A stretch of 64,000 nucleotides of DNA. It comes from a virus (taxonomy: Duplodnaviria > Heunggongvirae > Uroviricota > Caudoviricetes). The translations under genes and the position numbers were made by a program. The notes beneath the pieces were generated by a model. That model was not told where the DNA came from, searched no databases, and saw nothing but the letters and a program-made list of their open reading frames with translations. Location: IMG/VR virus record IMGVR_UViG_3300035703_000003. One strand, 5' to 3'. Below are positions 712-30,881 of the stretch, in pieces (within the stretch, counting starts at the first letter, position 1; the number at the start of each line of letters is the position of its first letter).

Positions 712-1045
712 ATAAACTCTATTTTTACAAAAGGCAGCGAGGGGATATGCTCCGGGTCCCTAAACCTGCTCCTCTTTTCGTTACACTAGGGAATGTAACT
801 ACTTCTGCTTACTTGCTCTGCCTATTCTAGAAATAGAGTAATTGGTAGCGACATTTGGTAACGCTCCAAATCTTCAGCCTTATGAGAGCCGAGTCGGCAC
901 TTGCCGTGTCGCCAAAATATTATTAGCTTGCTGCTAGATTTTTACTCTGCCGTTATCGCCGGACATTTCATCTTCTAACACGCCCATTTGAGTTTGTTTA
1001 TAGTGGTTACTCGCAGTCTCGTTCCGCATTTCCACTTTAGCCTAA

Positions 1046-1079
1046 TAAAAAACCCTCCTAGTATCTCTACTGGAGGGTG
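1046..1079 (-). terminator. Rho-independent terminator (minus orientation)
   Basis: CCCTCC...GGAGGG hairpin followed by a T-run on the minus strand (A-run on plus), downstream of the 1290..2051 gene. Confidence 0.5.
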
Positions 1080-1289
1080 TCATTGCGTTTATGTGTATCT
1101 ACACTTATCCGCTATAACCCTCCGAGAACTCAAAGAGATACTCGTGGCGTTCAAAACGCTTAATGCTAATCATGTGTTTAGTATTGTGAGTCATCTCTTG
1201 ATTTCCTTTTGCTTATGTTAGTAATATAGTGCTTTTATTTATCATCGTCAACCGTTTTCTTTGACAATTTAGACGTATTACAAAAAAAA

Positions 1290-5220: not shown

Positions 5221-5659
5221 GTATTCTATTTATAAACTACGTTTAGAAGATACACATAAACTTAGCATAACGCTCTCCGGACTAAGCCTCTGTTAGTATA
5301 TATGTGTATCGTCAAAACGTAATGTTTTGCCTAGCTTGAGATTACAGCGTAGGACGGGAGCCTTTGAGCATTACCGTTGGCCTTGCGAGCCACGTTCTCT
5401 CGTTATCCACAGAAGCCTGTTACGGTCATCCTGTATCTCCCAATGGTGCCTTTTTTGGAGAGTGGCGTTTCTCTCGTCGCACGTTGCTACTCGTCCTTCT
5501 ATCCTTCGTCTGCCTTGCGAGCAGTTCAGAGTCGCTAAACCCTTACGCTATCTTTCCGAACAACTACATCAGCCTTGCGAGCATCCGTAGACCACATTCT
5601 CTTTCGAGTGTGGCATTAACCACCTTTCACAACGTACCGGGACAGTCTTTCGCTTTTGT

Positions 5660-5730
5660 TTCAATAGTAGGAGTTGAACCTACAATCCATCGTTCTGAAT
5701 ACGATTGCATTACCGTTATGCAATATTGCG
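5660..5730 (-). ncRNA. tRNA-like element with anticodon loop ATTCAGA (anticodon UCA, would read UGA); acceptor weak, no CCA
   Basis: T-arm GTAGG-TTCAACT-CCTAC, 5-nt variable, anticodon stem ATCGT/ACGAT perfect, D-arm GCAT-AACGGTA-ATGC. Only 5 of 7 acceptor pairs form. Confidence 0.35.
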
Positions 5731-6346: not shown

Positions 6347-6375
6347 AATATAGTATGTGTTGCTGTCATTGTCAA
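6347..6375 (-). promoter_or_regulatory. Sigma70-type promoter TTGACA-N17-TATATT, minus strand, reading into the ncRNA locus
   Basis: Reverse complement reads TTGACAatgacagcaacacatacTATATT. It belongs to the repeated promoter-leader element 6301-6380. Confidence 0.6.
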
Positions 6376-6575
6376 CACCTTTTTTTATCTTTTTTTATTT
6401 AATTACTTGAGCCTGTTGCCACAACATCAACAGCATTATCTACAAATTTTCGGCCGTGTAGTTATGGACTTGCGTCCTTGGGGTAAGTCATTACAGTTAC
6501 TTGGAAGGATGCATTTCCTTTGTTACTACAGCCGCTAAACCGTAGCACCTTTCACTTACTGACACTCAAGTATTT

Positions 6576-6649
6576 TGGCGACCCTACGGGGACTCGAACC
6601 CCGTTCACCAGGTAGACAGCCTAGTGTAATACCCATATACCATAGGGCC
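6576..6649 (-). tRNA. tRNA-Asp (anticodon GTC)
   Basis: Acceptor GGCCCTA/TAGGGTC, anticodon stem CTAGG/CCTGG with loop CTGTCTA, T-arm CGGGG-TTCGAGT-CCCCG, CCA encoded. Confidence 0.65.
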
Positions 6650-6655
6650 AATTTA

Positions 6656-6746
6656 TGGCGGACACTCAGGGATTCGAACCCTGGGACGCCTTTCGACGCC
6701 GTCGGTTTTCAAGACCGGTGCAATAATCCATCTCTGCCAAGTGTCC
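6656..6746 (-). tRNA. tRNA-Ser (anticodon TGA), long variable arm
   Basis: Acceptor GGACACT/AGTGTCC, anticodon loop CTTGAAA, variable-arm hairpin GGCGTC-GAAA-GGCGTC, T-arm CAGGG-TTCGAAT-CCCTG, CCA encoded. Confidence 0.7.
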
Positions 6747-6749
6747 GTA

Positions 6750-6835
6750 TTGCTTTAGACTGGGCTGTTTGCAGCTTTAACCCGGCTGGTTACGGGTGCG
6801 TTCCTCACAAGGGCCGATTATATCACAGTCTAAAC
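6750..6835. ncRNA. Short inverted-repeat-bounded element (9-bp IR, TTTAGACTG/CAGTCTAAA), possible small RNA
   Basis: IR flanks about 63 nt lying between two tRNA genes. No tRNA fold was found. Confidence 0.25.
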
Positions 6836-6836
6836 T

Positions 6837-6912
6837 TGGTTGCGTTGGGTGGGACTCGAACCCACGATCTTTTGGTTATGAGCCAAACGAGATGCCGCTT
6901 CTCTACCCCGCA
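6837..6912 (-). tRNA. tRNA with anticodon CAT (Met, fMet or Ile2 type); acceptor has two G.A mismatches
   Basis: T-arm GTGGG-TTCGAGT-CCCAC, anticodon stem TTTGG/CCAAA with loop CTCATAA, D-arm GAGA-AGCGGCA-TCTC. Acceptor is TGCGGGG vs CAACGCA. Confidence 0.5.
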
Positions 6913-6927
6913 ATAGTCCTATTATAA

Positions 6928-7015
6928 TGGCGGAGCGACTGGGAGTCGAACCCAGTGAGGGATTGCTCCCTCTACAGATTAGCAATCTGCTGCATTACCA
7001 TCCTGCCCCCGCTCC
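6928..7015 (-). tRNA. tRNA-Ser (anticodon GCT), long variable arm
   Basis: Acceptor GGAGCGG/TCGCTCC, anticodon stem GCAGA/TCTGT with loop TTGCTAA, variable hairpin GAGGGA-GCAA-TCCCTC, T-arm CTGGG-TTCGACT-CCCAG, CCA encoded. Confidence 0.7.
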
Positions 7016-7022
7016 GTATATT

Positions 7023-7098
7023 TGGCTCCCTGACGTGGGCTCGAACCACGGACCCGATGATTAACAGTCATCTGCTCTACCAACTGAGCTATCAGGAA
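7023..7098 (-). tRNA. tRNA-Asn (anticodon GTT)
   Basis: Acceptor TTCCTGA/TCAGGGA, D-arm GCTCAGTTGGTAGAGC, anticodon stem GATGA/TCATC with loop CTGTTAA, T-arm CGTGG-TTCGAGC-CCACG, CCA encoded. Confidence 0.75.
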
Positions 7099-7329
7099 AC
7101 ACTATGCTTTTGGCTCTACTCAGCGTCATCCAGAGCGATTTAACTAGAGGGGTGCTTTTCTCCAGTACCGTTATTCTTGTGGCTTACGGAGTTATCCTCC
7201 TGCACTAGTTTATTCTATAAATACACGATGATAAAAAAGACTTGGTCTATTATATTACCGTGTATTATTGTTGTCAGCTTTTTTCTAGCTGTAAGCAATC
7301 TTTTTACCACATGGCATAATCATCAAATG

Positions 7330-7697
7330 CTGTTGGAAATACTTCACAGCACTGAATAATTCAATTGCTCGTTCTACTTACACATACACCCCAGCATTTC
7401 TGCGTAGTCCGCAAAGTGTTGGGTGGCCTACCCTCATTCACAGGATGTATGTGAAAATAGAATCGTTGTCTCTACTTACAAGTATGTTAGTCTGTCTTTG
7501 AAACAGCGAGCGCCCGTCGGCTTTTTACATAGGTCAACCCAACCACGCACGGAGTCGAACCGTGCTACTCCCATTTCTAACATACATGTAAGTAGAGATT
7601 TGATAATGTATGTTGGTTGCATACATCGTCTACTTACAATCCCTATCATCGCTTTCGCTAAGGAATGTGATAAGCTATAATAGCTTACCGTAATACG
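7330..7697 (-). ncRNA. Second structured non-coding locus downstream of the duplicated promoter-leader element (T-arm-like CACGG-TTCGACT-CCGTG, nested hairpins)
   Basis: No credible ORF. Inverted repeats are TGTAAGTAGAG/CTCTACTTACA and ATGTATG...CATACAT. It lies downstream of the 7698-7777 element, which is homologous to 6301-6380. Confidence 0.35.
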
Positions 7698-7777
7698 TCT
7701 AAATTGTCAAAGAGCGTGTAAACAACTTCTTGCTTACTGTGTTAACTTAGCGTCTTGTTTTTGCTTTGTCAACAACT
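7698..7777 (-). repeat. Promoter-leader repeat, copy 2 (homologous to 6301-6380)
   Basis: Shared blocks are CAAAGAGCGT(A/G)TAA(G/A)CAACTT...TTGCT...GTCAACA. Reverse complement gives TTGACA-N17-TAAGTT. Confidence 0.5.
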
Positions 7778-7836
7778 TTTTTCTTTTTTGTTTGAGTGCT
7801 TCAATCTTTGTTACAAGTTTCTGCGTCCCTTACTAG

Positions 7837-7868
7837 TTATATATAGTGTATGATGTCTTGCCTGTCAA
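7837..7868 (-). promoter_or_regulatory. Sigma70-type promoter TTGACA-N17/18-TATATA (minus strand)
   Basis: Reverse complement reads TTGACAggcaagacatcatacacTATATA and shares the ...ACACTATAT core with the other early promoters. Confidence 0.5.
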
Positions 7869-7875
7869 GTATTAT

Positions 7876-7935
7876 TTTGTCTTTTTTTTTGCCATTAAAA
7901 AAGCCCCGCAGCTTTCGCTTGGGGCCTTGGTGTTC
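7876..7935 (-). terminator. Terminator-like GC hairpin with flanking T/A runs
   Basis: GCCCCGCAGCTTTCGCTTGGGGC hairpin. On the minus strand it is followed by TTTTTTAATGGCAAAAAAAAA. Confidence 0.4.
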
Positions 7936-8294
7936 GAACTTTATAAGTTGTTCAGCTACCTCGGCCCGCCTGCACGGAATCGACACTAGGATTGCCCCCT
8001 AGTGACCATGTATTCTGTGCTGTGGTTCCGCATGTAATCATTGAACTGTTTATTCCTTATATAAGTTTATTTATCATCTGAGATAAAATTATCTTACACT
8101 TTTATTTATCATCTTGAAAATATTTAGTCTGCGTCCGGCAACTGCAAAGCCTGAGAAAGCGTTTATCGGTTTTACCAGCAGTGTTAGGACTTCTTACTTC
8201 GAATTATCTTATCGGTCCATTTTTACGCCTTAAGTAGAGAATCTCAATTATAAACTACAAGACGCAGACTAAAACTTTGGTGCCCTAAGGCGTG

Positions 8295-8735
8295 TTACAT
8301 TCCTAGTTTATACGAGCTGTTGCTCACAGTAAACGATTGCTTCCAAGACCATTCGTCTAGAACAAGTTGGTTAAACACATCGTCTTCAAGTTCGATTACG
8401 TCTTCAACACTTAGTTCAAGCATACGAGCTGCACGATTGTAATCACTTTCGTAACTACGTGGTGCAGAAGGGATACCTTTAATCTCTTTAATTTTTTCTA
8501 GATCACCTGTGTTTGCTAGTTTTGCATTTTCTTTTGTGATCTTAACAGTAAGTGTTTTGTAATCGTTAACTGCTTCATCGTATTCAGCAATGTGCTTAAT
8601 CTTGTTTTGACGAACAATCATTAGGAGCTCGTCTTTTTTCATCTTTACACTACGCATAGCGTTTCTCCCATTCATACGCATATTAAACTTCCTTAAAAGA
8701 ATATTTGGTGCCCCCGGTCGGACTCGAACCGACAC
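8295..8735 (-). CDS. Hypothetical protein
   Basis: 146-aa ORF in the minus-strand gene series, ending next to a tRNA. Confidence 0.55.
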   Translation of the reverse strand: MSVRVRPGAPNILLRKFNMRMNGRNAMRSVKMKKDELLMIVRQNKIKHIAEYDEAVNDYKTLTVKITKENAKLANTGDLEKIKEIKGIPSAPRSYESDYNRAARMLELSVEDVIELEDDVFNQLVLDEWSWKQSFTVSNSSYKLGM

Positions 8736-8782
8736 TATGCGGATTTTGAATCCGCCGACTCTACCAATTGGCCTACAGAGGC
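8706..8782 (-). tRNA. Class-I-shaped tRNA with anticodon CAA (Leu codon UUG)
   Basis: Same scaffold as 4528..4604 and 10426..10502: acceptor 3' strand CGGGGGC, discriminator A, D-region GGCCAATTGGTAGAGT, T-arm GTCGG-TTCGAGT-CCGAC. Anticodon stem GCGGA/TCCGC with loop TTCAAAA, 5-nt variable loop. Confidence 0.6.
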
Positions 8783-9069
8783 GATATTAAAACAGAGAGG
8801 AAAGAGTGAGTAATAAAGTTCTAGCAAAGTGCATGTAGCGTGGTATACAGACCTACTTTTGCAAAAAACAAATCGCAATCTACAATGCTTATATTTCCGA
8901 TTATCAACATGCAGTGTCAATTAAGACGAATATAATAAAATCGGAACACATAGCTGGAGACCATAAACGATCATGTTATGCAAGTAACGCTTGCCCGCCT
9001 CTATTCTCTTTTCTCTTTCCTACTCTGGGTAGTTTCGGGCAAGTTGCCTTGCCCTGGGTCTACCAAAAC

Positions 9070-9669
9070 TTATTCTACAATACCTGCACGAGCAAGGAAA
9101 TGCTCTGCTTCATCGTCAAGCACAATTGTAGTGCTTACGTTAAGCTCTAGCAACGAGTCTTGCAGTGCAGTCTTTACTCGCTTTAGACGAGCGAGTTCGG
9201 CTTTGAATTCTTCGATCTTCTCTTTATCGAAGATGTTAGTAGTGACAGTGTCGTCACCGAAACGACCGTAAACGTCTGCTTTGTCACGACCTTTAATCTT
9301 GCCTAGCTTACCGACAAGAACATCGTTAGCTACTGCAGGCTCTAGCTTGCTTAGACGCCCGTATAGCTGCATGTCTTTGTCTAGCATTGCTACATCAGCT
9401 AGCAAGCTATCAATACCGGAAGCGGCGTTAGCATGGGCTACTGCCTTGCGAATTTCGTAAAGAACGCCTAGCAGCTTGCCACGAGTAGCAAGATGTGTCT
9501 CAAAGCGGTTAGTAGCTTCGGACACCTTTTCGCTAGGCTTTTCGAATTCGTTAACCGAAACTTCTGTGCCTAGATCTAGTGTGCCTAGCATTTCATTAAT
9601 TGCGTGTTGTAGTGCGTTTGCTTTACGAAGTGAGATTTCCATTACTTTGTCCTTTGTGTTCGTTTTCAA
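9070..9669 (-). CDS. Hypothetical protein
   Basis: 199-aa ORF with overlapping genes upstream and downstream, consistent with operonic packing. Confidence 0.55.
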   Translation of the reverse strand: MKTNTKDKVMEISLRKANALQHAINEMLGTLDLGTEVSVNEFEKPSEKVSEATNRFETHLATRGKLLGVLYEIRKAVAHANAASGIDSLLADVAMLDKDMQLYGRLSKLEPAVANDVLVGKLGKIKGRDKADVYGRFGDDTVTTNIFDKEKIEEFKAELARLKRVKTALQDSLLELNVSTTIVLDDEAEHFLARAGIVE

Positions 9670-10246
9670 TTTTCTTTGCGATTACTTTGTGTAGACCTGG
9701 ATTAATAACTAGCATTTGTGTTACAACGTTTTCACGAATATAGTTTCTAATGTATGAAGTGTCAAGATTTGATTTGTCTTCAACCCAACTTACATTTTTT
9801 CGTTTACACCAATCAACAAACTCGTGCTTTCTGTTTAACCTAAACGGCCTAATAACGTTTTCATTTTGGTAAGGAATAATTTTACCCTCACCGTGCATAC
9901 TTGACCAAATCCACGTTTCTACACAATCATCCAAATGATGACAAGTGATAACAGGCTTTTGCCAGGCATTTAAAACTTTATAACGTTCGTTCCTCCAGTG
10001 TTCTTCTTGGCTTACGCCCTTAGGAACAACAGTGTTGATATACGAAGTGTATAGTTTTAGTTTAGTATCGTCTGCATACTGCAAAAGAAACTTGTGTGCT
10101 TGTTCACTTGTTTCTGTGCCGTGATGCACAAATTGTAGAGTAATACGATGATTTCTTTTTAGAAAATCAACAATAGCCATACTATCAACGCCGCCACTGC
10201 AAGCAATTACAACGTCTCTGGGTAGTTTGCTTTGGACTTTAATCAT
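9623..10246 (-). CDS. tilS: TilS-like tRNA(Ile)-lysidine synthetase catalytic domain (PP-loop ATPase)
   Basis: PP-loop SGGVDS near the N-terminus. Blocks FVHHGT, CHHLDDCVETW and WVEDKSNLDTSYIRNYIR resemble the TilS N-domain motifs (HVHHGL, QHLDDQCETF, WIEDESNQDDSYDRNFLR) as I recall them. It lies immediately downstream of two CAU tRNAs. Confidence 0.7.
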   Translation of the reverse strand: MIKVQSKLPRDVVIACSGGVDSMAIVDFLKRNHRITLQFVHHGTETSEQAHKFLLQYADDTKLKLYTSYINTVVPKGVSQEEHWRNERYKVLNAWQKPVITCHHLDDCVETWIWSSMHGEGKIIPYQNENVIRPFRLNRKHEFVDWCKRKNVSWVEDKSNLDTSYIRNYIRENVVTQMLVINPGLHKVIAKKIENEHKGQSNGNLTS

Positions 10247-10262
10247 CGCATTACTCTAGTTT

Positions 10263-10338
10263 GGTGGAAGGACTGGGACTCGAACCCAGATAGTTACGTT
10301 TATGAGACGTATGCATTCACCAATTATACTATCCTTCC
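10263..10338 (-). tRNA. tRNA with anticodon CAT (copy A; Met, fMet or Ile2)
   Basis: Acceptor GGAAGGA/TCCTTCC perfect, anticodon stem TACGT/ACGTA with loop CTCATAA, T-arm CTGGG-TTCGAGT-CCCAG, CCA encoded. Confidence 0.7.
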
Positions 10339-10342
10339 GATT

Positions 10343-10419
10343 TGGTAGGGGATACCGGACTTGAACCGATAACCTGCCGATTATGAGTCGGACGCTCTAA
10401 CCAATTGAGCTAATCCCCC
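10343..10419 (-). tRNA. tRNA with anticodon CAT (copy B; Met, fMet or Ile2)
   Basis: Acceptor GGGGGAT/ATCCCCT, D-arm GCTCAATTGGTTAGAGC, anticodon loop CTCATAA, T-arm ATCGG-TTCAAGT-CCGGT, CCA encoded. Confidence 0.7.
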
Positions 10420-10425
10420 TAACTT

Positions 10426-10502
10426 TGGTGCCCCCGGTCGGACTCGAACCGACACTACGCAGATTTTAAGTCTGCTGACTCTACCTATTGGCCTACAAGG
10501 GC
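10426..10502 (-). tRNA. Class-I-shaped tRNA with anticodon TAA (Leu codon UUA)
   Basis: Same scaffold as 8706..8782 (acceptor 3' strand CGGGGGC, D-region GGCCAATAGGTAGAGT, identical T-arm). Anticodon stem GCAGA/TCTGC with loop CTTAAAA, 5-nt variable loop. Confidence 0.6.
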
Positions 10503-10509
10503 GTAGTTC

Positions 10510-10592
10510 TGGTGCGGGCACCCGGACTCGAACCGGGACGCATTGAGCAAGAGATTTTAAGTCTCTCGTGGCTACCATTTCACCATGCCCGC
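10510..10592 (-). tRNA. tRNA-Leu (anticodon TAA), class II with long variable arm
   Basis: Acceptor GCGGGCA/TGCCCGC, anticodon stem AGAGA/TCTCT with loop CTTAAAA, about 11-nt variable region, T-arm CCCGG-TTCGAGT-CCGGG, CCA encoded. Confidence 0.65.
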
Positions 10593-10605
10593 ATAAGTTG
10601 TTTTT

Positions 10606-10682
<77 letters not shown>

Positions 10683-10697
10683 AGCAAAAAACAACTT

Positions 10698-10991
10698 TTA
10701 TATCTGAACAGGTAATCGACCAGTTACGCTATACATTTTCTTGATAATAGCATTAACGTCGGATTCTGTCAAGTATCCACGAACACCTTTGTTACCGGTA
10801 ATTCCAGGAAGCTCAACAAATCCAAATTCAACTCCATCATCGGAGCCGTAAGTCGCAATTTCAAAGAGATCTGAGTCTTTGCCCATACCGTCGTCAATGA
10901 CACTTAGTTGGTAGGATCCAAAACCAAGTAGAACTTGATTTCCGTTCCTCCATTTATCTTTTTGAATCATTGTAAAGTCTGACAGTTTCAT
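10698..10991 (-). CDS. Hypothetical protein
   Basis: 97-aa ORF. Confidence 0.45.
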   Translation of the reverse strand: MKLSDFTMIQKDKWRNGNQVLLGFGSYQLSVIDDGMGKDSDLFEIATYGSDDGVEFGFVELPGITGNKGVRGYLTESDVNAIIKKMYSVTGRLPVQI

Positions 10992-11385
10992 TTTGTATCT
11001 CTTGTTACAGTATTATTTATATCTTAATTTTCACGGTTTGTCAATATTATTCTTCTGTAACAGTAACTTTTTTATCTTTTGTTTCAGGATCGAACGTCAT
11101 ACTTTGTACAATTGCCTTTACATCATTTTTATCTGTTGCAACTACTACAACTTCATTATCAACACGAATGTAATATGCCATTAGTTTGACTCCTGACCGT
11201 AAGGGATGAACTCAACAGTCCACTTACCATCAGACCAAACGTTAAGGTACTTCATCCAGTATTTGTGCATACCGTATTTGTTTTTGTGAAGCCGAGTGAG
11301 GTAGCTTAGTGTGCCGCTGTGAATCATCTTGTTCATCCTCTGTTTTCTACTCTATATACATAGCACGTAGGTTGAGTGCTGTCAA

Positions 11386-11601
11386 TCAAAAAGGTTCTGG
11401 TTCTTCCACCTGGACGTATTCTTCTTCGGTCAGTCCTGCGATGTAGCTTTCGATGGTGTCCGAAAGGTGCATTTCGATGTCTTCCTGTAGGCTTTCCAGT
11501 GTGTCTTTGGGGAACTCAGGCAGTCCCGCTCTTAGTGTGTTCATAGCACTTTGGACCGCAAGGTCTACCAGAGTGTTGAGTCGTTGTTCAGAAACTACCA
11601 T
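11386..11601 (-). CDS. Small acidic hypothetical protein
   Basis: 71-aa ORF, acidic (EEEYVQVEEPEPF). Confidence 0.4.
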   Translation of the reverse strand: MVVSEQRLNTLVDLAVQSAMNTLRAGLPEFPKDTLESLQEDIEMHLSDTIESYIAGLTEEEYVQVEEPEPF

Positions 11602-11616
11602 TTTGGTTATCCTTTT

Positions 11617-11991
11617 CTACCATTTAATTCCAAGAGCCGCAAGTTCAGCTGGCGAAAGTTTGCTGATAGCGGTCAGCCGCAGATCAGCCTTACGCTTTTC
11701 GGCAGCTTCACGAGCAAGTCGCACAGCATCTTCTTTCTTATGACGTTTCCACCATGCTTCAACGTGTCCACGCTTTACACCAGCTTCTTTCCAGTCGATC
11801 CGTGCCAGCAGCCCATCAAGACCGCCAACAATCACACCTTCTTCGGCAGCAGTGAAGACGCCGCAAAGTGTAGCTTCGAAAGATTCGATATCCATCCCGT
11901 GGCGGGTTTCTTTACGAGGGGCATCCCAATCATCAGATCTGCAAGGCATTTTGTATCTCCTTATTTCGTATAGACGAAGTGCTTGTTCCAC
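11617..11991 (-). CDS. Hypothetical protein
   Basis: 124-aa ORF. Confidence 0.45.
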   Translation of the reverse strand: MEQALRLYEIRRYKMPCRSDDWDAPRKETRHGMDIESFEATLCGVFTAAEEGVIVGGLDGLLARIDWKEAGVKRGHVEAWWKRHKKEDAVRLAREAAEKRKADLRLTAISKLSPAELAALGIKW

Positions 11992-12374
11992 CGACCAACT
12001 TTGATGTCAGTGTAGAACGCAATGTGGAAGTAATCAGTCATGCTGTCGCTCTCGTCGAACCAGTCCGTGCCACGCATTGCAGCAAGAAGTTCGTTAAACA
12101 TCGAGCGGATCTTACCTTTGTAGTGGTCGTTGATCCAGTAAGTGTTAACACTGTAATGACCGTCGACAGGGTAAAAACGCTCATTGCGGCGTTCAGCAAC
12201 TTCGAGGTTAGACTTGTTAGCTTCACCAATAAGGTCAAGTTTGCCTTCAGTGATCGTCACAACAAGCGAGGAATGGTTATCAACACTGATCGAGCCTTTC
12301 ATGCCATACTTTTTCAGCACAGCTTTGATGGCCGGAGCCTTAGCACGTTTCATCTCTTGCGACACATAAGCCAT
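11961..12374 (-). CDS. Hypothetical basic protein
   Basis: 137-aa ORF located directly downstream of the promoter at 12409-12437. Confidence 0.55.
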   Translation of the reverse strand: MAYVSQEMKRAKAPAIKAVLKKYGMKGSISVDNHSSLVVTITEGKLDLIGEANKSNLEVAERRNERFYPVDGHYSVNTYWINDHYKGKIRSMFNELLAAMRGTDWFDESDSMTDYFHIAFYTDIKVGRWNKHFVYTK

Positions 12375-12408
12375 TTTTGAAGTCCTCTTCTTTACTGCCT
12401 ACATTTAT

Positions 12409-12437
12409 AATATAGTGTAAGACGTCTTGGTTGTCAA
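12409..12437 (-). promoter_or_regulatory. Sigma70-type early promoter TTGACA-N17-TATATT with AAGACGTCTT palindrome in the spacer
   Basis: Reverse complement reads TTGACAaccaagacgtcttacacTATATT. Confidence 0.65.
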
Positions 12438-12440
12438 CCT

Positions 12441-12662
12441 TTATTTAAACTGACGATTTAGTTTCGACAACGCTCGGCGCTCTGCATTGATACGCAAGCG
12501 AACTGCACCGCGAGCTTCGTTCAACAACCAGTCCCACTCACGTTGCTTGCCTTCTGGCGTATGGTTGGCCCAACGAATCCAAAACAAGCTATCTGAATCA
12601 GGACGACGACCGTATGCTGCTTCAACTAGGTCAGCTACTTTCGAATCATTGTAAGTAAACAT
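12441..12662 (-). CDS. Small hypothetical protein
   Basis: 73-aa ORF downstream of the promoter at 12689-12717. Confidence 0.5.
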   Translation of the reverse strand: MFTYNDSKVADLVEAAYGRRPDSDSLFWIRWANHTPEGKQREWDWLLNEARGAVRLRINAERRALSKLNRQFK

Positions 12663-12688
12663 TTTTGGTCTCCTTGTTGTTACATGTA

Positions 12689-12717
12689 TAATATAGTGTA
12701 AGAGCTCTTGAATGTCA
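12689..12717 (-). promoter_or_regulatory. Sigma70-type early promoter TTGACA-N17-TATATT with AAGAGCTCTT palindrome in the spacer
   Basis: Reverse complement reads TTGACAttcaagagctcttacacTATATT. The 16-bp stretch TTCAAGAGCTCTTGAA is a perfect palindrome. Confidence 0.65.
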
Positions 12718-12725
12718 ACCGCTTT

Positions 12726-13109
12726 TCAATAAGAAATTGCACTTTCTCGCATTTTATCTCCGTAAAATTTGACACCTTTTTCCTTCACAAGATCAACAAG
12801 AACTTGTGGAGTAATATCGGCAATTTCACGGAGCATATCCTCGGTGATATCATCGTCAACGTTAATCCCCCAAATTTGTGGGAATCGTTGAGGATTAAAC
12901 CGAGCTCGCATACATAGCATATTGTATGTCGAACCGATATTGTGTGGTTCAGGTTCCCCTGACAACTTAGCTACTAAGTTTTCGTTACGCCATTCGCCGA
13001 TAGGAACAATAGATTCGATTCCGTTTGTATCCCAAGAGATAAGGAATTCTGACATGTTAGCACCAATATACTGGTTCTTCGTATTCTTCGTCGTTATCTT
13101 TTTGCTCAA
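12726..13109 (-). CDS. Hypothetical protein
   Basis: 127-aa ORF. Confidence 0.5.
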   Translation of the reverse strand: MSKKITTKNTKNQYIGANMSEFLISWDTNGIESIVPIGEWRNENLVAKLSGEPEPHNIGSTYNMLCMRARFNPQRFPQIWGINVDDDITEDMLREIADITPQVLVDLVKEKGVKFYGDKMRESAISY

Positions 13110-13331
13110 GCAGATGCCGCTCGAACTCCAAGTATTCTTCGAGTGTCATGTCCATGTTATTCTCCATTGATTTTATCACACATGCCAGTGATCGCAGCCA
13201 TTCCAGCACCTTTACCGAGTGCAAACGCATACCAGCCGCATTTGGAAAAGGTGTAGGCTGTGGTGCTAATCCCTAACAACAATACAAAGCCAAACATTGC
13301 AAAAAAAGCAAAACGGTTCATGTTGTTCTCC

Positions 13332-13631
13332 TTACACCCGGATTACGTTGATATCACGATTTTCTGCTTCGTAATCAGCATCAACTGTGCCGCTCACAAA
13401 GTAACGCCGACGAGTGCCATCGGATTCAAACCCTATCTCGGTGGCATAATTTTCTTTGGGCAAGTAAGCAAACCCACGATAGTTACCGGTTTCAAACAGC
13501 ACTGCTTCGAGCAACGAAGCAACTGCTTCACGCTCGTCTGCGTTGGTATTTTTTGCAGCAAGGAAAGTATTTGCCATCTTGAGCATCTTACCAACTTCGA
13601 TCGTCTTACGAGCAGTTTTCGGCATCGGCAT
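13332..13631 (-). CDS. Hypothetical protein
   Basis: 99-aa ORF downstream of the promoter at 13655-13683. Confidence 0.5.
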   Translation of the reverse strand: MPMPKTARKTIEVGKMLKMANTFLAAKNTNADEREAVASLLEAVLFETGNYRGFAYLPKENYATEIGFESDGTRRRYFVSGTVDADYEAENRDINVIRV

Positions 13632-13654
13632 TCTCCTCTATCGCCTACATCTTA

Positions 13655-13683
13655 TATATAGTGTAAGAGCTCTTGAATGTCAA
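13655..13683 (-). promoter_or_regulatory. Sigma70-type early promoter TTGACA-N17-TATATA with AAGAGCTCTT palindrome
   Basis: Reverse complement reads TTGACAttcaagagctcttacacTATATA. Spacer is identical to that of the 12689-12717 promoter. Confidence 0.65.
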
Positions 13684-13690
13684 TCTTTTT

Positions 13691-14143
13691 TTAGAGTTTA
13701 TCTAATCTTTTTTGGTGACGACCACCTTCAAACTGTGCAGTAAAAAATGCATCTACAATAGCATATGCTTGCTCGGCAGTTGTTTGTCTACCACCTAGAC
13801 ACAATACGTTAGCGTTATTGTGCTGTCGAGTAAGTGCTGCAGTTTCTGCGTTATAGCAAAGACCTGCCCTAATGTGACTGTATCGGTTTGCTGCAATACT
13901 AATACCAATACCTGTGCCACAGATAAGGATGCCAAATTCATTACCACCTTCAGTAATAGTTTCACATACTGCTTTTGCATAATCTGGATAATCTACACTA
14001 GCAGTGTCATGACAGCCAAAATCTTTAACGACTACAGAATATTTGTCTGTAAAAGGATCTTTACTACGCAAATATGAAACAATCGCTTGTTTAAGTTCGT
14101 ATCCGCCATGGTCACAACCAATGGCAATTTTAAAGGCTGACAT
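13691..14143 (-). CDS. rpiB: RpiB/LacAB-family sugar-phosphate isomerase (ribose-5-phosphate isomerase B-like)
   Basis: 150 aa. The N-terminus KIAIGCDHGGYELK and overall length are typical of RpiB. Confidence 0.7.
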   Translation of the reverse strand: MSAFKIAIGCDHGGYELKQAIVSYLRSKDPFTDKYSVVVKDFGCHDTASVDYPDYAKAVCETITEGGNEFGILICGTGIGISIAANRYSHIRAGLCYNAETAALTRQHNNANVLCLGGRQTTAEQAYAIVDAFFTAQFEGGRHQKRLDKL

Positions 14144-14585
14144 CTTCTAATCCTGCTGCTCTAAGTTTTACAATGTTATTGATTTGGAATTGCTTTGCAT
14201 CAAGTGCTTTAATCAAGCCCATGAACTTGTTTCGTATAAGTGCAAATTCATTCACGATATGTTGTTGGTCCACAACCTCTTGAACGCCGTCTACATATTT
14301 TTCAGCATCACGACTAGTCAATGCACGATTGTAGTGTTCGAGAAATTTCTTGTAATGTTCTGTTCGTTTTTTGCGAAGTTCGATATTCAAGTATTCTAAT
14401 ATTGCTTCAATTTCCTGCAATTGGTTAAAACGATGTTCGACTATACCTGGCATGTCACGGCTGTGCTTTTCAACATTGCCTTTAAGGCCACACTCTATAC
14501 GAGCTTGTGCTAGCTGATTTTCGTAATAATCAATTGCAGGAATAATTTGAGATATGTCCTGACGGATTTCTCTAAACCAGTTCAT
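14130..14585 (-). CDS. Hypothetical protein
   Basis: 151-aa ORF. Translationally coupled to its neighbours. Confidence 0.5.
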   Translation of the reverse strand: MNWFREIRQDISQIIPAIDYYENQLAQARIECGLKGNVEKHSRDMPGIVEHRFNQLQEIEAILEYLNIELRKKRTEHYKKFLEHYNRALTSRDAEKYVDGVQEVVDQQHIVNEFALIRNKFMGLIKALDAKQFQINNIVKLRAAGLEDVSL

Positions 14586-14588
14586 TAC

Positions 14589-14879
14589 TTACCATTTATC
14601 TTCATCTTCAGAGTCATAATCTTCATAGCTGTCGCTATCAATATATACTTCTCTCAAGACTCTGTCAAGTGTGCTATCATATCCTACCCATTCGTCTGCA
14701 GTTTCAGATAAGTCGCAAACATTCTCATTAATAATGTCTAAAAACTTTTGACATGCAGTTTCTTTTTCTTTAGGGTTTAAATATGTTTTCATTGACATCC
14801 AAATGTCAACGTATGTTTGTATTTCAGATTCGTTTAGTTTCATAGTTAGTTTAGGCCTCCAAGATGTTTTGGGTATCAT
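14589..14879 (-). CDS. Small acidic hypothetical protein
   Basis: 96-aa ORF with an acidic C-terminus (DSDSYEDYDSEDEDKW). Confidence 0.45.
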   Translation of the reverse strand: MIPKTSWRPKLTMKLNESEIQTYVDIWMSMKTYLNPKEKETACQKFLDIINENVCDLSETADEWVGYDSTLDRVLREVYIDSDSYEDYDSEDEDKW

Positions 14880-15948
14880 CTTGGGTATTTAGTTCTTCCA
14901 CTACAGAATCTGTGTCGTGATCATTCCACTGTTGCATAATCAAATCCAATACTCCTTCTTCGTTAGATTCCCATGCTTTGCGGAATTTCAGAATCGCTTC
15001 ACCGGTTTCTTTGTTGATGTATTGTAGTCGGTTGCCGCTTTTAGTTAAAACAGATTTTGCTTCACAAAAGTCTACAAGCCCGCTATATGGGCTCATACCT
15101 GTTTCATACGGAATTTTTACTTGGACAGATTCAAACGGCTTCGCATAACGTGTTTTCATAATTTTACAAGAAGCACGAATACCACGCACTTCTGAAATCT
15201 TATTGCCATCTTCATCTTCTTTAAGTTTCAACTTACGCATAGCAACAACAATACTTGAAGCATAGATAAAGCCAGCGCCGCCTGAAATCTTATCGTCTGG
15301 ATCAAACATGTCTTGCGATGCATACGTATGGTTAGTTGCAACTAACCCGATATTATAATCGCCAAACATGTTAACACAATTTCGAACAAGTGCTGTAAGT
15401 GCTTTAGGCTTACGACCCATATCACCTTTAAGATCGCCTTTGCTAAATTGGTCAACATCTGTTGGAGTTAGCAACATACCAAGTGAGTCAATTACAAATA
15501 GTATTTTAGGTCTATCTGTATCTGCACTGTCTGAATATTCTTTTTTGTAATCTACCATGAGATCGTTGATAATTTTTGCAACATCATCAATCATAGCAAC
15601 GTTTAGCTTAAGAAGTTTTTCTGGCGATGTATCAACTTCCAACGCTTTGAGCCACTGCTCGTCAAGAGCGTTTTCTGTATCAACTAGAACAACAAAAATA
15701 CCTTGACGTTGTGCTTCACGAACCAAGTTGCCTGAACAAATAAATGATTTACCTGCGCCAGACTCGCCTGCAAACACTGTTACTTTACCAAGTGGAACAC
15801 CGCCGTCGAACCGACCACTGATAAGTTTATTTAATGTATAATTTCCTGTGCTAATCCAAGTATCAGGGTCTCTAAACCCGATGCTCATGCCAGGAACACT
15901 TTTAGTAATGCTCTTGCGGAATTTACTAATATCAAAAGGCTTAGCCAA
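14851..15948 (-). CDS. uvsX: RecA-family recombinase, UvsX-like
   Basis: Walker A GESGAGKSF. Blocks VFVIDSLG, ATNHTY and PYSGLVD match the RecA/UvsX core. It sits next to the gp32-like gene. Confidence 0.8.
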   Translation of the reverse strand: MAKPFDISKFRKSITKSVPGMSIGFRDPDTWISTGNYTLNKLISGRFDGGVPLGKVTVFAGESGAGKSFICSGNLVREAQRQGIFVVLVDTENALDEQWLKALEVDTSPEKLLKLNVAMIDDVAKIINDLMVDYKKEYSDSADTDRPKILFVIDSLGMLLTPTDVDQFSKGDLKGDMGRKPKALTALVRNCVNMFGDYNIGLVATNHTYASQDMFDPDDKISGGAGFIYASSIVVAMRKLKLKEDEDGNKISEVRGIRASCKIMKTRYAKPFESVQVKIPYETGMSPYSGLVDFCEAKSVLTKSGNRLQYINKETGEAILKFRKAWESNEEGVLDLIMQQWNDHDTDSVVEELNTQDDTQNILEA

Positions 15949-16013: not shown

Positions 16014-17039
16014 TTAGTTTGAGCCTCTAGCACGAATCGCTGCTAGAATGTCTTGTGCGCTGGGTTTAGCGTCACTAGTAGCCGGTTTTACAATCGGCGC
16101 ACTGGGCTTTGGAGCCGATTCCTCAAAAGGGATTTCGTCGTCTTCATCTGGCGTAGGTGCAGAGCGCACTGGTGGTTGTGCTACGCTCTTTGCCGCTGGC
16201 TTAGGCGCACTGTTATTTGCTGCACTATTGCTAGTGTCAATTTGAACACCCGACGGACGATAGAAGTTACCCCAACGTTCCGGATCATACAATTGTCCGT
16301 CTACACTAGCTTCAAACATTTCTTGAATAACACGAAGTTCTTCATCGTTTGGTTGCTTTGGTAGATAATCGTTAAGATTGAATAGACCGAACTTTTCAAT
16401 ACTTGCACGTTCTTCGCTATTTAGACTACGTTCACGACGAGCCCAAGTGCTAGTGCTATAGTCAGCATATTGACCTTTTTGTGACTTAGTCAACCGGAAG
16501 TCAGTGCCTGCTTCGTAATCTGTTGGGATATTTTCGAAGTCTGTATCCATAAGCGCACCTTTGATAATCTTAAAGATGCTAGGATTAATAATGAATCTGC
16601 GGATTGGATTCTCCGGAACAGATTCTTCTTGTAGGCTGTTTTCTGTTACAAAACCTTGGAACACGTAGCTCTTTTTCTTCCAGTATTTGCGACCAAGTTC
16701 TTCTAGGTTAGGATCTTTAAACCACCCACGAACTTCGCTAAGAACTGGGCAACTTCCTACAGGACCCCACATTTCATTACATGGAACGTTTACTGTAACC
16801 TTACGGCTATCAGGTTGACCTTTAACTCCGTTAAAGTCAATACGGATCATTTGACGTTCACGCCAAAAATAAGTGTTTGATGCGTCTCCATCTGGAAGGA
16901 AACGAATTACACTTGTTGTATTTTCTGGGATATTCCAAAATGGGAAGATAGCGTTATCGCTTGTTCCACCTGTAGATGCTCCTGATGAGCGAGCTTCTTG
17001 TTCTTTTAGTTTTGCACGAATTTCTGCCAATGTAGCCAT
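16014..17039 (-). CDS. ssDNA-binding protein, gp32-like
   Basis: The SVIRFLPDG block resembles T4 gp32 AVIRFLPSK. The acidic C-terminal tail (DEDDEIPFEES) is typical of gp32. Confidence 0.7.
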   Translation of the reverse strand: MATLAEIRAKLKEQEARSSGASTGGTSDNAIFPFWNIPENTTSVIRFLPDGDASNTYFWRERQMIRIDFNGVKGQPDSRKVTVNVPCNEMWGPVGSCPVLSEVRGWFKDPNLEELGRKYWKKKSYVFQGFVTENSLQEESVPENPIRRFIINPSIFKIIKGALMDTDFENIPTDYEAGTDFRLTKSQKGQYADYSTSTWARRERSLNSEERASIEKFGLFNLNDYLPKQPNDEELRVIQEMFEASVDGQLYDPERWGNFYRPSGVQIDTSNSAANNSAPKPAAKSVAQPPVRSAPTPDEDDEIPFEESAPKPSAPIVKPATSDAKPSAQDILAAIRARGSN

Positions 17040-18527: not shown

Positions 18528-20093
18528 TTATGTTAAAAACACAAAAGGCATAGGAGCAAGATCTTCGTCTTCGTCAAATGTATCTTTTAGTTCGTTGTAT
18601 GTTGTTTCATCATACTGTGCAACATGTTGGGCAATACGAACTACTAGTAATAATGCCATTACTAAGTCATCTGTTTCACCATCCTTTGCAGAAAAACTAC
18701 TAGCACGGGCAACGAATGTTTTTAATTCTCTAAGTAATGCGCTACTTGATATCTCTATCTTGTTGCCTTCGACCCAAGTTTTTAATTTACTACATGCACT
18801 AAGTTTTGATTTATTAGTTGTAGTAAATCCTTTCCTATGAACACGCCCTGCAGTTTTTGGCTGACTTATAAAAGTCCCTGGAATATTATCTTCTCCGACT
18901 TCGTTAATAACAACTAACGCCGCTTCACCTAATGTATTATTCTCTACGCTCCAGTAAATTTCTGCATCTGGTGCTTCTTCTTGTACAGTCTGTAGTATAC
19001 TTTTTAATATACGTATTTGTTCAGTAATTGCTGTTTTGTTATGTTTCCACTCTGCAACTTGCTTCATACCTGGCAATTCATATACTTGTATTGCAGCATT
19101 ATCGCCGCCTGTTCCGAGACTTGGATCTAGCCCTGCTATATATGTTTTGCCTTTTTGTATGTTTTTATACCATCTAACTTGCCCGGTGCGCTTATATGGA
19201 TCTCTACCTTCCATTACACTTAACTTAAGACTACTAATAAGTGTTTCGTCTGCAGTGATGAATTCACAACCGTGTTCACGTCTAAAACGTTCTTCGCCAA
19301 TCTTACCTTGTTCTTCTGCTGCCCACTTTTCATCACGATCTGGGTGTTCACGCCAATCGACAAGTATACTCTTAAATCCGTTAACACCTACCGGAGTTTC
19401 GTTACCGTATTCGTCTTGTGTCTTGTTTGCTTGCTTCCAAATCTGAGCAAACTGGTCGTTGTCTTGGTTGGGAGTAGATGTAATAAAACACTTACCACCT
19501 GTGCTTAATGTTGGCGACAGCGAAGTCCAAAACTCGCTAGCAATACGTGGAGGGACGAACGCAAATTCGTCTAAGTAAACAAGTGTAAGAGACAAACCAC
19601 GACCGGTGTTTTCAGTTGTTGCTTGTGCAATAATTCTGCTACCGTTATCAAACTCAAGCGAGCCTTTATTGTATGCTGTAGAACCTGCACGTATGTGGTT
19701 AGGACAACATTCATACATAAAACGTATACGTTGCATAATTTCTTGAGCACCGCTCATTTTGTGTGCTGCAATTAAAATTGTGCTATCTGGTTTAAACATT
19801 GCGTACCATAGCAAGTATGCTGCGGCACAAGTTGACTTACCGGTTTGTCTAGGCAACATTGCTATACTGTAGCGATAGTTATGATAAACATCTACTAGAC
19901 GTTCTTGATATCCGAACAATTCGAATTTCATCCTACCTTTAGTAGGATGCTGAATATAACAAAATTCTTTGATAAAATATTGAGGATCTACAGCCGACAT
20001 TGCTAATTCTTGCAACTGTTGCGCTGTGAACTTTTCTTTACTATAGGGTTTTTTAACTAAATTTGTATCAACTGACATACAACTACTTATCAA
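18528..20093 (-). CDS. terL: Terminase large subunit
   Basis: 521 aa. Contains an ATPase core (ILIAAHKMSGAQE, LVYLDEFAFV Walker-B-like) and a C-terminal nuclease-like region. Confidence 0.8.
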   Translation of the reverse strand: MISSCMSVDTNLVKKPYSKEKFTAQQLQELAMSAVDPQYFIKEFCYIQHPTKGRMKFELFGYQERLVDVYHNYRYSIAMLPRQTGKSTCAAAYLLWYAMFKPDSTILIAAHKMSGAQEIMQRIRFMYECCPNHIRAGSTAYNKGSLEFDNGSRIIAQATTENTGRGLSLTLVYLDEFAFVPPRIASEFWTSLSPTLSTGGKCFITSTPNQDNDQFAQIWKQANKTQDEYGNETPVGVNGFKSILVDWREHPDRDEKWAAEEQGKIGEERFRREHGCEFITADETLISSLKLSVMEGRDPYKRTGQVRWYKNIQKGKTYIAGLDPSLGTGGDNAAIQVYELPGMKQVAEWKHNKTAITEQIRILKSILQTVQEEAPDAEIYWSVENNTLGEAALVVINEVGEDNIPGTFISQPKTAGRVHRKGFTTTNKSKLSACSKLKTWVEGNKIEISSSALLRELKTFVARASSFSAKDGETDDLVMALLLVVRIAQHVAQYDETTYNELKDTFDEDEDLAPMPFVFLT

Positions 20094-22132: not shown

Positions 22133-22654
22133 TCACGCTTTGCCTGTTTTCATACGTTCGATAACAGCATTGATTAAACTATTTCTATCTTCAAATTCTT
22201 CTGCTTGACCGTCAATAGGATCATCTTCTTTTTCTTTAAGTGCATCATTTACTTTGCGTGTGTCGAGATCAAGTTTTGCTTTACGCATTTGTAACTCGAT
22301 CATTTTTAATTTTTTATCTAACTTTGTTTGTTTAGCAGTAATAGCATTGCTCATCATTTTTCCTGCAACATCAAAAATTGCAGCGGCATTTCTGTCATCG
22401 ACGTTTTGACCTAAGTCCATCAAGTCTTTAAATGCCTTCATTGCTTCGTCTGCATACTTGTCCATATCTTTGTCTAATGTTTCTAAGTCACGAACAACAG
22501 GCAGTGCCTGATCTATCTTATCAGCCACATCTAATGTATGCTGTAGTGTCGATAAGTCGAACCCGGTTTCTTCTTCAGCAATTAGTTGATCCACTTCGTC
22601 GTCTACTTCATCATTTGGTGGTAAATTAAAAACTTCTTCTATTTTTCTTGACAT
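22133..22654 (-). CDS. Hypothetical acidic coiled-coil protein
   Basis: 173-aa ORF. Confidence 0.5.
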   Translation of the reverse strand: MSRKIEEVFNLPPNDEVDDEVDQLIAEEETGFDLSTLQHTLDVADKIDQALPVVRDLETLDKDMDKYADEAMKAFKDLMDLGQNVDDRNAAAIFDVAGKMMSNAITAKQTKLDKKLKMIELQMRKAKLDLDTRKVNDALKEKEDDPIDGQAEEFEDRNSLINAVIERMKTGKA

Positions 22655-23085
22655 TATCTTTTTCCTGGATTGTTAAAGAGTTCATTCTCAGTTAAAACTC
22701 TAAAACCTACTCCTTGTTTTTCTGCAAATGTTTTTGCAGCTTTCCATTTTGCTTCATTCACAATCGCTTGTGCCTTTTGCTGCTGGCTCTTTGCTTTACC
22801 TAAAACTTGACCAGCTGGTTTGATTTCGATAAACTCTGCATGACGTTGTCCTGTTTTATCTTGATAAATCATAAAAAAATCAGGAACATAAACAGTTTGT
22901 CTGTTAGTGAGAGGATTAAAATAAGGAATACGATGACTTTCGCTTGCCCACGCTAAAACATAAGGATGTGCATCTAAAACTCTCATAAATTTCAACTCCC
23001 AACTTGACCGATATCTCGGTGTGTGTTTACCTATATACTTAGTTGGATTCTTTGGTTGAAATATGCCTTGTTGAAACTTGGACAT
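22654..23085 (-). CDS. Hypothetical protein
   Basis: 143-aa ORF. Start overlaps the upstream stop. Confidence 0.5.
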   Translation of the reverse strand: MSKFQQGIFQPKNPTKYIGKHTPRYRSSWELKFMRVLDAHPYVLAWASESHRIPYFNPLTNRQTVYVPDFFMIYQDKTGQRHAEFIEIKPAGQVLGKAKSQQQKAQAIVNEAKWKAAKTFAEKQGVGFRVLTENELFNNPGKR

Positions 23086-30852: not shown

Positions 30853-30881
30853 AATATAAGCAAAGTGTCTTGGTTTGTCAA
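30853..30881 (-). promoter_or_regulatory. Sigma70-type early promoter TTGACA-N17-TATATT
   Basis: Reverse complement reads TTGACAaaccaagacactttgctTATATT. Confidence 0.6.

Follow-up and report, generated by a model that had tools for sequence, protein, structure and literature searches.

We describe here an rpiB gene on the minus strand of a 64-kb stretch of uncultured phage DNA (IMG/VR record IMGVR_UViG_3300035703_000003; the whole stretch of 64,000 nt is referred to below as the window). It is likely that this gene encodes an active type-B ribose-5-phosphate isomerase (RpiB, EC 5.3.1.6) and serves the phage as an auxiliary metabolic gene (AMG) that would push ribulose 5-phosphate (Ru5P) to ribose 5-phosphate (R5P) and on to phosphoribosyl pyrophosphate (PRPP) for nucleotides, probably co-expressed with recombination and replication genes. 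The evidence consists of the family membership of the protein, its intact active site and its fold, purifying selection on the gene, its position after uvsY and its linkage to nucleotide genes in related phages. The gene and two features inside it are located as follows:

13691..14143, minus strand: rpiB coding sequence (type-B ribose-5-phosphate isomerase), stop codon included, 150 aa, ATG start at 14143; based on the open reading frame (ORF), PF02502, TIGR01120, an AlphaFold2 (AF2) model with Foldseek, and the ratio of nonsynonymous to synonymous substitution rates (dN/dS)
13919..13921, minus strand: codon of Cys75, the predicted catalytic base (Cys66 in Escherichia coli), placed by alignment, with Thr77 two codons downstream
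14039..14059, minus strand: 7-residue insertion D29-Y35 (DPFTDKY), seen in the alignment and the AF2 model and specific to the phage clade of the window

The ORF is full-length (MSAFKIAIGCDHGGYELK…GGRHQKRLDKL, 150 aa). Pfam PF02502 (LacAB_rpiB) matches it over profile positions 1-138 of 138 with E=6.4e-57 and 191.8 bits (gathering score 24.7), a family match that is real and far beyond chance. The protein also scored above the NCBIfam rpiB equivalog TIGR01120 (176.0 bits, curated cut-off 138.65) and NF004051 (184.2 bits, cut-off 135). The best sequence matches among solved structures were all RpiB proteins, with Thermotoga maritima 1O1X first (2e-40), followed by Clostridium thermocellum 3HE8/3PH3 and E. 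coli 1NN4/2VVR. An earlier reading of the DNA, made from the letters without database searches (the sequence-only reading), had noticed a clear RpiB/LacAB-fold protein here. Its coordinates were exact, the peptide it quoted is identical to residues 5-18 (KIAIGCDHGGYELK), and the family it named is matched end to end. It had also named a better match to a non-isomerase family as grounds for giving the assignment up; the rpiB equivalog was passed and the models of other specificities stayed below their cut-offs. Taken alone, the enzymatic identity as RpiB is very probable.

Three related specificities were tried and rejected. A LacA/LacB galactose-6-phosphate isomerase is ruled out by the scores (LacB 110.3, cut-off 234; LacA 78.6, cut-off 164), and the two-subunit arrangement of that enzyme is not seen either, as the window gene is single and has no adjacent paralogue. 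RpiBs of the actinobacterial type use Glu, not Cys, as base; this type (TIGR02133) was dismissed with 120.4 bits against a cut-off of 168.2, and a Cys-type base is present. D-erythrulose-4-phosphate isomerase (DerI/EryI) reached only 90.2 bits with NF051858, for which the cut-off is 240.

The catalytic residues were compared with E. coli RpiB (sequence verified as 100% identical to 1NN4/2VVR) and with the T. maritima and C. thermocellum enzymes, and their conservation was examined in 14 sequences of clade A (the phage clade of the window), 23 other viral and 78 cellular RpiBs. D11, H12, C75 and T77 align with E. coli D9, H10, C66 and T68, and H108, N109, R142, H143 and R146 with H99, N100, R133, H134 and R137, so that the alignment proposed by the sequence-only reading found every catalytic residue intact. 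These positions are invariant or nearly so in all three sets, and the catalytic Cys is invariant in each of them. The exceptions among the viral sequences are a single Ser for Thr at the position of E. coli Thr68 and one or two clade-A fragments whose C-terminal tail diverges.

In E. coli RpiB we take Cys66 to be the base and Thr68 the proton shuttle, with Asp9 and His10 in the same active site, and His99, Asn100, Arg133, His134 and Arg137 to be residues of the partner subunit that serve ring opening and phosphate binding. By homology to these positions, the window protein would interconvert Ru5P and R5P via an enediol(ate) intermediate, with Cys75 as base, Thr77 as proton shuttle and Asp11/His12 in the same site, while His108, Asn109, Arg142, His143 and Arg146 would act across a dimer interface in ring opening and phosphate binding. 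The conserved partner-subunit residues are consistent with a homodimer or tetramer with shared active sites.

The AF2 model, computed for the monomer from a 50-sequence alignment, has a predicted local distance difference test score (pLDDT) of 93.5 and a predicted template modelling score (pTM) of 0.89. All of its top 18 Foldseek matches in the PDB are RpiB, with template modelling (TM) scores of 0.85-0.90 to 3HE8, 1O1X, 1NN4 and 2VVR and a root-mean-square deviation (rmsd) of 0.9 Å to E. coli RpiB. The sole structural peculiarity is the DPFTDKY insertion, which the model places in the loop between helix 1 (H12-26) and strand 2 (E35-41). It is found in the window and in the clade-A members P0004-P0007 and P0009 (71-100% identical to the window RpiB) and is absent from more distant (marine) viral relatives and from the reference RpiBs. 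Judging by the fold topology, this loop would lie on the face opposite the catalytic cleft.

Conservation and linkage to nucleotide genes

Relatives were collected by metagenome and IMG/VR searches and fall into two tiers. Tier A (proteins P0001-P0009, loci L001-L012) has RpiBs 71-100% identical to that of the window, the full gene order and the 7-residue insertion. Tier B comprises about 22 IMG/VR loci (L013-L032, L037 and L038) with RpiBs 53-58% identical to the window protein; in their flanks UvsY is 65-81%, UvsX 73-78%, gp32 58-74% and the terminase 67-81% identical. In the window these neighbours are:

14130..14585, minus strand: UvsY-like recombination mediator gene (phrog_231, E=2.5e-15), whose last 14 nt at the 3' end overlap the rpiB start
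14851..15948, upstream of rpiB in the direction of transcription: UvsX-like recombinase
16014..17039, upstream of rpiB in the direction of transcription: gp32-type single-stranded DNA-binding protein
18528..20093, upstream of rpiB in the direction of transcription: large terminase

The order terminase, 454-aa gene, gp32, UvsX, small gene, UvsY, RpiB is found again on a 296,543-bp contig and at about 28 IMG/VR loci, and that of L001-L012 is seen in independent assemblies (ENA, JGI, Logan, IMG/VR). Most tier-B loci keep rpiB downstream of uvsY, either immediately or with 0.2-5 kb of inserted genes in between; at four loci (L013, L021, L024 and L027) the gene has relocated to a place beside the tail-sheath module. 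Tier B is at least partly marine, since a protein labelled as coming from Tara Oceans shows 100% identity to the L022 RpiB. In 13 pairwise comparisons within and between the tiers, dN/dS of rpiB ranged from 0.035 to 0.21 (a 14th pair was saturated), which indicates purifying selection. The gene thus has the features of an AMG, namely phage genes on both sides (UvsY, UvsX, gp32 and terminase upstream, conserved phage ORFs downstream) and maintained selection.

The synteny on independent assemblies and the dN/dS values lead us to exclude that rpiB is a passenger without a role in the phage, either captured recently from a host or mis-assembled into the viral contig from cellular DNA; the chance of this is very slim. 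Such an origin would fit the lack of rpiB in cultured relatives and the many RpiB-matching 'phage' records in INPHARED that look like cellular contamination, which is a documented concern for viromes (PMC3877843). However, the uvsY overlap and the phage genes on both sides recur on the ENA, JGI, Logan and IMG/VR assemblies, identities of 53-100% extend across a deep phage clade with dN/dS of 0.04-0.2, the best match in a cellular genome is only about 56% identical, and clade A has its own 7-residue insertion.

One variation was seen inside tier A. L005 and L006 carry at 969..1589 an additional 206-aa Vut_1 gene (PF02592, queuosine-precursor transporter family) between the 84-aa gene and uvsY. 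Their RpiB is 100% identical to that of the window, from which the Vut_1 gene is absent.

The role of the enzyme is suggested by its partners in the relatives. In the marine relatives L022 (2726..4344) and L027 (3249..4861) a full purA gene (adenylosuccinate synthetase, Pfam E=2e-158) overlaps rpiB by 4 nt with an ATGA junction. The two purA copies are 73% identical, and the pair occupies different genome positions in the two loci. In L018 (3199..end) the sequence after rpiB begins the same purA frame, a probable third pair. That the pair stays overlapping while it relocates speaks well for a role common to both genes, in nucleotide synthesis. A deoxynucleoside monophosphate (dNMP) kinase is encoded 0.7-1.3 kb upstream of rpiB in L013, L024 and L027. 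In L033, an ordinary T4-like phage outside the jumbo clade (Pfam gp32), rpiB has SbmA/BacA and a PnrA-type nucleoside-binding protein as neighbours at 1-2 kb, and in L035, which has no other gene in common with the window, it lies near DHFR. L022 also encodes a 518-aa radical-SAM protein between uvsY and rpiB.

The intact RpiB, together with the purA, dNMP kinase and DHFR linkage, supports the proposal of the sequence-only reading that the gene boosts the R5P supply for nucleotide synthesis. Pentose-phosphate flux would be drawn to R5P, then to PRPP and to purine and pyrimidine nucleotides, and the extra supply would help to replicate and transcribe a very large genome.

The same partners bear on the opposite direction of flux. 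R5P released from host RNA, nucleosides or ADP-ribose could be converted to Ru5P and pass through the non-oxidative pentose phosphate pathway (PPP) into glycolysis for energy and carbon; the RpiB reaction is freely reversible (PMC4022391), the window encodes a NUDIX hydrolase (36255..36785), and the PnrA-type protein near rpiB in L033 is compatible with nucleoside scavenging. We consider this catabolic use unlikely. The purA overlap and the proximity of dNMP kinase and DHFR point to building of nucleotides, not to their breakdown, and genes for a phosphopentomutase, nucleoside phosphorylase, transketolase or epimerase did not turn up in the window or in those flanks that were examined. The NUDIX gene sits among tail genes on the opposite strand, at a distance of 22 kb.

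Equally improbable, in our view, is that the enzyme acts on another sugar phosphate, such as allose 6-phosphate or another rare aldose or ketose phosphate, which would feed glycan, virion or DNA sugar modification. The partners most tightly conserved beside rpiB in relatives belong to nucleotide metabolism rather than to glycan pathways, and the window RpiB clears the rpiB equivalog cut-off but that of no model for another specificity. It is true that the RpiB/LacAB fold serves several sugar-phosphate isomerisations, as the range of NCBIfam matches illustrates, and that E. coli RpiB handles allose 6-phosphate (PMC4022391). In Synechococcus phage Bellamy, moreover, a 385-aa 'phosphatase' encoded among glycosyltransferase, phosphatase and aldolase genes includes a fused RpiB domain, and an Anp1-like gene is present in the window (37883..38473), with faint homologues (19-24%) between uvsY and rpiB in L019 and L031. 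However, the window RpiB is only 31% identical to the Bellamy domain, no sugar-nucleotide gene adjoins rpiB in the window, where the glycosyltransferase-like gene is 24 kb off, and the L031 homologue has no Pfam match.

Several points weigh against a role in nucleotide supply. Queries with purA, dNMP kinase and the radical-SAM gene (tblastn) had no match in the 64-kb window, Pfam and NCBIfam scans of about 40 window ORFs revealed no PPP, PRPP or purine gene, and the only nucleotide-related Pfam match in 30 other window ORFs was the NUDIX hydrolase. With no pathway partner in the window, the link to the pathway rests on the relatives. The cultured relatives (PA5oct, Atu_ph07, Phosso, Vibrio phage 2.275.O and the CBB/Rak2 group) have no RpiB homologue at E<=1e-5. 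Viral RpiB has been listed as 'not validated' (PMC12713726). The E. coli enzyme isomerises allose 6-phosphate as well (PMC4022391), so the substrate range is not set by sequence. The reaction is reversible and its direction in the infected cell is assumed, and the gene may supplement, replace or bypass a host RpiA or RpiB.

A probable uvsY-rpiB unit

The signals around the two genes suggest how rpiB would be expressed:

14151..14154, minus strand: AGGA Shine-Dalgarno-like motif upstream of the rpiB ATG, within the 3' end of uvsY
14640..14668, minus strand: σ70-type promoter-like site TTGACA-N17-TATATT, 55 nt upstream of the uvsY start, 11/12 consensus positions
13655..13683, minus strand: σ70-type promoter-like site beginning 8 nt past the rpiB stop

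The start context of rpiB reads …GCAGCAGGATTAGAAGATG, with the ATG 14 nt inside uvsY and AGGA before it. Because the ATG lies in the 3' end of uvsY behind this motif, translation of rpiB is probably coupled to that of uvsY. The same AGGA/14-nt junction is conserved in L001, L007, L008, L009 and L010, and seven distant relatives (L016, L018, L026, L028, L030, L037 and L038) have a 4-nt overlap of the ATGA type, so that one or the other overlap with uvsY is found in many relatives. The sequence-only reading had described rpiB as coupled to unknown genes. The upstream overlap is real, while the partner is not an unknown gene but UvsY. The downstream gene is not coupled to rpiB: a gap of 59 nt lies between the two, and that gene has a promoter-like site of its own.

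No terminator-like hairpin was found between uvsY and rpiB. The site at 14640..14668 is the probable start of a uvsY-rpiB transcript, and the one at 13655..13683 would mark where this unit ends and the next early one begins. A TTGAC(A/T) -35 element just after the rpiB stop recurs in L007, L008, L009, L013, L014, L029, L031 and L037. The simplest reading is a bicistronic uvsY-rpiB unit expressed from a promoter of the host σ70 type, with rpiB as the promoter-distal cistron and another such unit directly after it.

Sites of the form TTGACA-N17-TATAWW occur nine times in the window (0.08 expected), all on the minus strand. Eight lie within 6347..14668 and the remaining one at 30853..30881. These nine sites probably form an early promoter set, and by analogy with T4 we infer that the uvsY-rpiB promoter is an early one. 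The placement of rpiB in an early region, as given in the sequence-only reading, gains indirect support from the eight promoters between 6.3 and 14.7 kb, one of them 55 nt upstream of uvsY. The T4 late-promoter motif TATAAATA is not enriched in the window (4 matches, 5.3 expected) and could therefore not be used to delimit late genes. Several of the nine sites have a near-identical extended spacer (…CAAGA(G/C)…CTTACACTATAT…).

Carrier phage and origin of the gene

Upstream of rpiB the genes are, nearest first, UvsY, a 96-aa ORF, UvsX, gp32, a 454-aa ORF and the large terminase; tail sheath and gp15-like genes follow farther along the window. Terminase identity is highest with PA5oct (Arenbergviridae), at 58%; Atu_ph07 and Phosso follow with 50-54%, then Vibrio phage 2.275.O and the GAP32/CBB group with 45-48%. 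The relatives of UvsY are the same set of phages: in tblastn it is 45-50% identical to genes annotated as UvsY-like in Atu_ph07 (about 50%), Vibrio phage 2.275.O, CBB and PA5oct. Based on these relationships and on the 296,543-bp metagenomic contig with the same gene order, the carrier is placed as an uncultured jumbo myophage (a relative measures about 300 kb) of the PA5oct/Atu_ph07/Rak2-like assemblage and not as a T4-like cyanophage. The sequence-only reading had mentioned cyanophages as known carriers of pentose-phosphate AMGs; the carrier here is not one of them. A megablast search with 10 kb around rpiB against 50,697 phage records matched only a tRNA-Arg, so at the DNA level no cultured phage is a close relative.

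A search for the donor lineage had also been suggested in the sequence-only reading. A neighbour-joining (NJ) tree was built (169 sequences, 141 columns, 200 bootstraps), and it named no donor. Clade A had 94% bootstrap support and lay beside the other viral RpiBs in a 49-leaf group without any sequence from a reference genome; this union received only 19-30%. The cellular sister group mixes metagenome-assembled genomes (MAGs) of Alphaproteobacteria/Rickettsiales with Petrotoga and Thermotoga. The best matches in cellular genomes, at most 56% identical, are spread over Clostridia, Verrucomicrobiota and Bacteroidota, and the nearest metagenome proteins outside the clade (58-61% identical) resemble RpiBs of Clostridia MAGs. 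With such weak bootstraps and scattered cellular matches no donor can be named.

The common place of rpiB behind uvsY speaks for one old acquisition by the jumbo lineage or for a later replacement in situ. Between the window and L001, the 296-kb relative (rpiB at 8001..8450), no gene of the collinear stretch has diverged more than rpiB (dN 0.22, dS 2.6). The ten neighbours have dN of 0.03-0.15 and dS of 0.5-1.2, and UvsY is 98.7% identical. This excess divergence over the neighbours hints at mosaicism or allelic replacement of rpiB at a fixed locus.

A broader picture can be offered only tentatively. It is conceivable, though we would not favor it over its negation, that rpiB (in several members the rpiB-purA pair) is a vertically inherited nucleotide-precursor module behind uvsY that characterizes a cosmopolitan, uncultured aquatic family of PA5oct/Atu_ph07-related jumbo phages. 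This family, and not the cyanophages, might then be behind much of the rpiB enrichment in marine viromes, and the window would represent a sub-clade with a private surface insertion and an unusually diverged rpiB.

Some other features of the window were recorded. Thirty tRNA genes lie on the minus strand between 72 and 10682. The one at 5658..5730 has the anticodon UCA ('SeC' in ARAGORN) and could be of the opal-suppressor type. The stop codons of 50 large window ORFs are 40 TAA, 8 TGA and 2 TAG; as 8 of the 50 end in TGA, suppression by the UCA tRNA would read through some genes. A protein with the N-terminal domain of TilS (tRNA lysidine synthetase) is encoded at 9623..10246 on the minus strand (TIGR02432 107.5, cut-off 93.6; Pfam PP-loop E=2e-29). 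It adjoins two tRNA(CAU) genes (10262..10419, minus strand), whose products may be its tRNA-Ile2 substrates.

Among the structural genes, 22654..23085 (minus strand) encodes a TnsA-like endonuclease N-terminal domain (PF08722, E=1.6e-19), which may belong to a homing or mobile endonuclease. Two giant ORFs, 39143..47161 (2672 aa) and 51217..57033 (1938 aa), both on the minus strand, lie in the structural region beside a 971-aa ORF and near a Laminin_G_3 lectin-like protein (57080..57808); they presumably encode fibre or host-recognition proteins. The NUDIX hydrolase (36255..36785, plus strand) is stand-alone, MutT-like and below all equivalog cut-offs, and sits among tail genes. The Anp1-like (glycosyltransferase-like) protein at 37883..38473 (minus strand) is a weak match (E=1e-7).

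Comparison with known systems

RpiB is uncommon in cultured phages, as the sequence-only reading had stated. No RpiB family was found in PHROGs, which leaves the protein without a phage-family label, and the credible matches in 50,697 INPHARED records amount to four Synechococcus phages (29-32% identical) and a 635-kb uncultured phage (45%). The remaining INPHARED matches are unannotated, cellular-looking fragments. Records OR846xxx/OR848xxx ('Listeria phage LM 4-11-1 / 4-14-1') are unannotated and multi-contig and contain several different RpiB/LacAB homologues, and OR844994 and OR849914 ('Staphylococcus phage SA … Kay') have two RpiB/LacAB matches each. These Listeria and Staphylococcus records look like cellular sequence that inflates the counts of phage rpiB.

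The four Synechococcus phages with RpiB-family domains are Bellamy (gp206), SynMITS9220M01, Ssp-JY38 and Yong-L2-223, all 29-32% identical to the window RpiB. In Bellamy (L120, 3266..4423) the RpiB-like domain (31%) is C-terminal in the 385-aa 'phosphatase', with two glycosyltransferases, another phosphatase and an aldolase nearby; it is a different use of the RpiB fold. Yong-L2-223, a 66-kb phage, has a stand-alone RpiB gene near an aminotransferase. The linkage to uvsY is absent in both. The closest cultured relatives of the carrier, PA5oct and the Atu_ph07/Rak2-like jumbo phages (terminase 58%, UvsY 45-50%), have the same kind of large myophage genome, but in PA5oct uvsY is followed by a 483-aa hypothetical gene and not by rpiB.

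With the bacterial enzymes (E. coli RpiB/AlsB 1NN4 and 2VVR, T. maritima TM1080 1O1X, C. thermocellum 3HE8) the window protein shares length and fold, at 47-49% identity when aligned by structure, TM scores of 0.87-0.90 and rmsd values of 0.9-2.1 Å, and the Cys-type catalytic set (D, H, C, T, H, N, R, H, R) is identical. Where E. coli has Arg40 the window RpiB has Ser, as do most RpiBs other than that of E. coli. Unlike its bacterial counterparts, the window gene is phage-encoded, overlaps uvsY and has the DPFTDKY insertion, and its activity is predicted.

The cyanophage AMGs of the PPP (talC, zwf, gnd and CP12) direct host carbon into this pathway for R5P and NADPH and the synthesis of deoxynucleoside triphosphates (PMC6359870). 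The gene described here would follow the same logic but differs in the enzyme and step, an isomerase that would yield R5P directly, and in the phage lineage; domain scans of the window ORFs found none of talC, zwf, gnd and CP12. It represents a well-anchored and apparently functional PPP AMG outside the cyanophages, from a large uncultured jumbo lineage, and its 150-aa product is a candidate with which a viral RpiB could be validated biochemically for the first time.

Viral rpiB is not a new idea and has been reported in marine viromes since 2013-2014. The gene was among the high-confidence virome KEGG Orthology groups of Roux et al. 2013 (PMC3877843), and Enav et al. 2014 found it enriched in marine viral metagenomes, gave the R5P to PRPP rationale and attributed the scaffolds to cyanophages (PMC4022391). 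It is also listed in AMG reviews and surveys (PMC6359870, PMC10653327). The window gene belongs to the same family on aquatic viral DNA, and the role proposed for it is the one already suggested in this literature; current ideas are not overturned. Whereas the virome scaffolds were assigned to cyanophages, the carriers found here have the gene order of PA5oct/Atu_ph07-like jumbo phages, and they may be viruses that carry the rpiB signal of the viromes. Modestly new are these jumbo carriers, the fixed uvsY-rpiB arrangement, the rpiB-purA pair and the clade-specific insertion, and the two conserved linkages suggest that precursor supply is co-expressed with recombination and replication.

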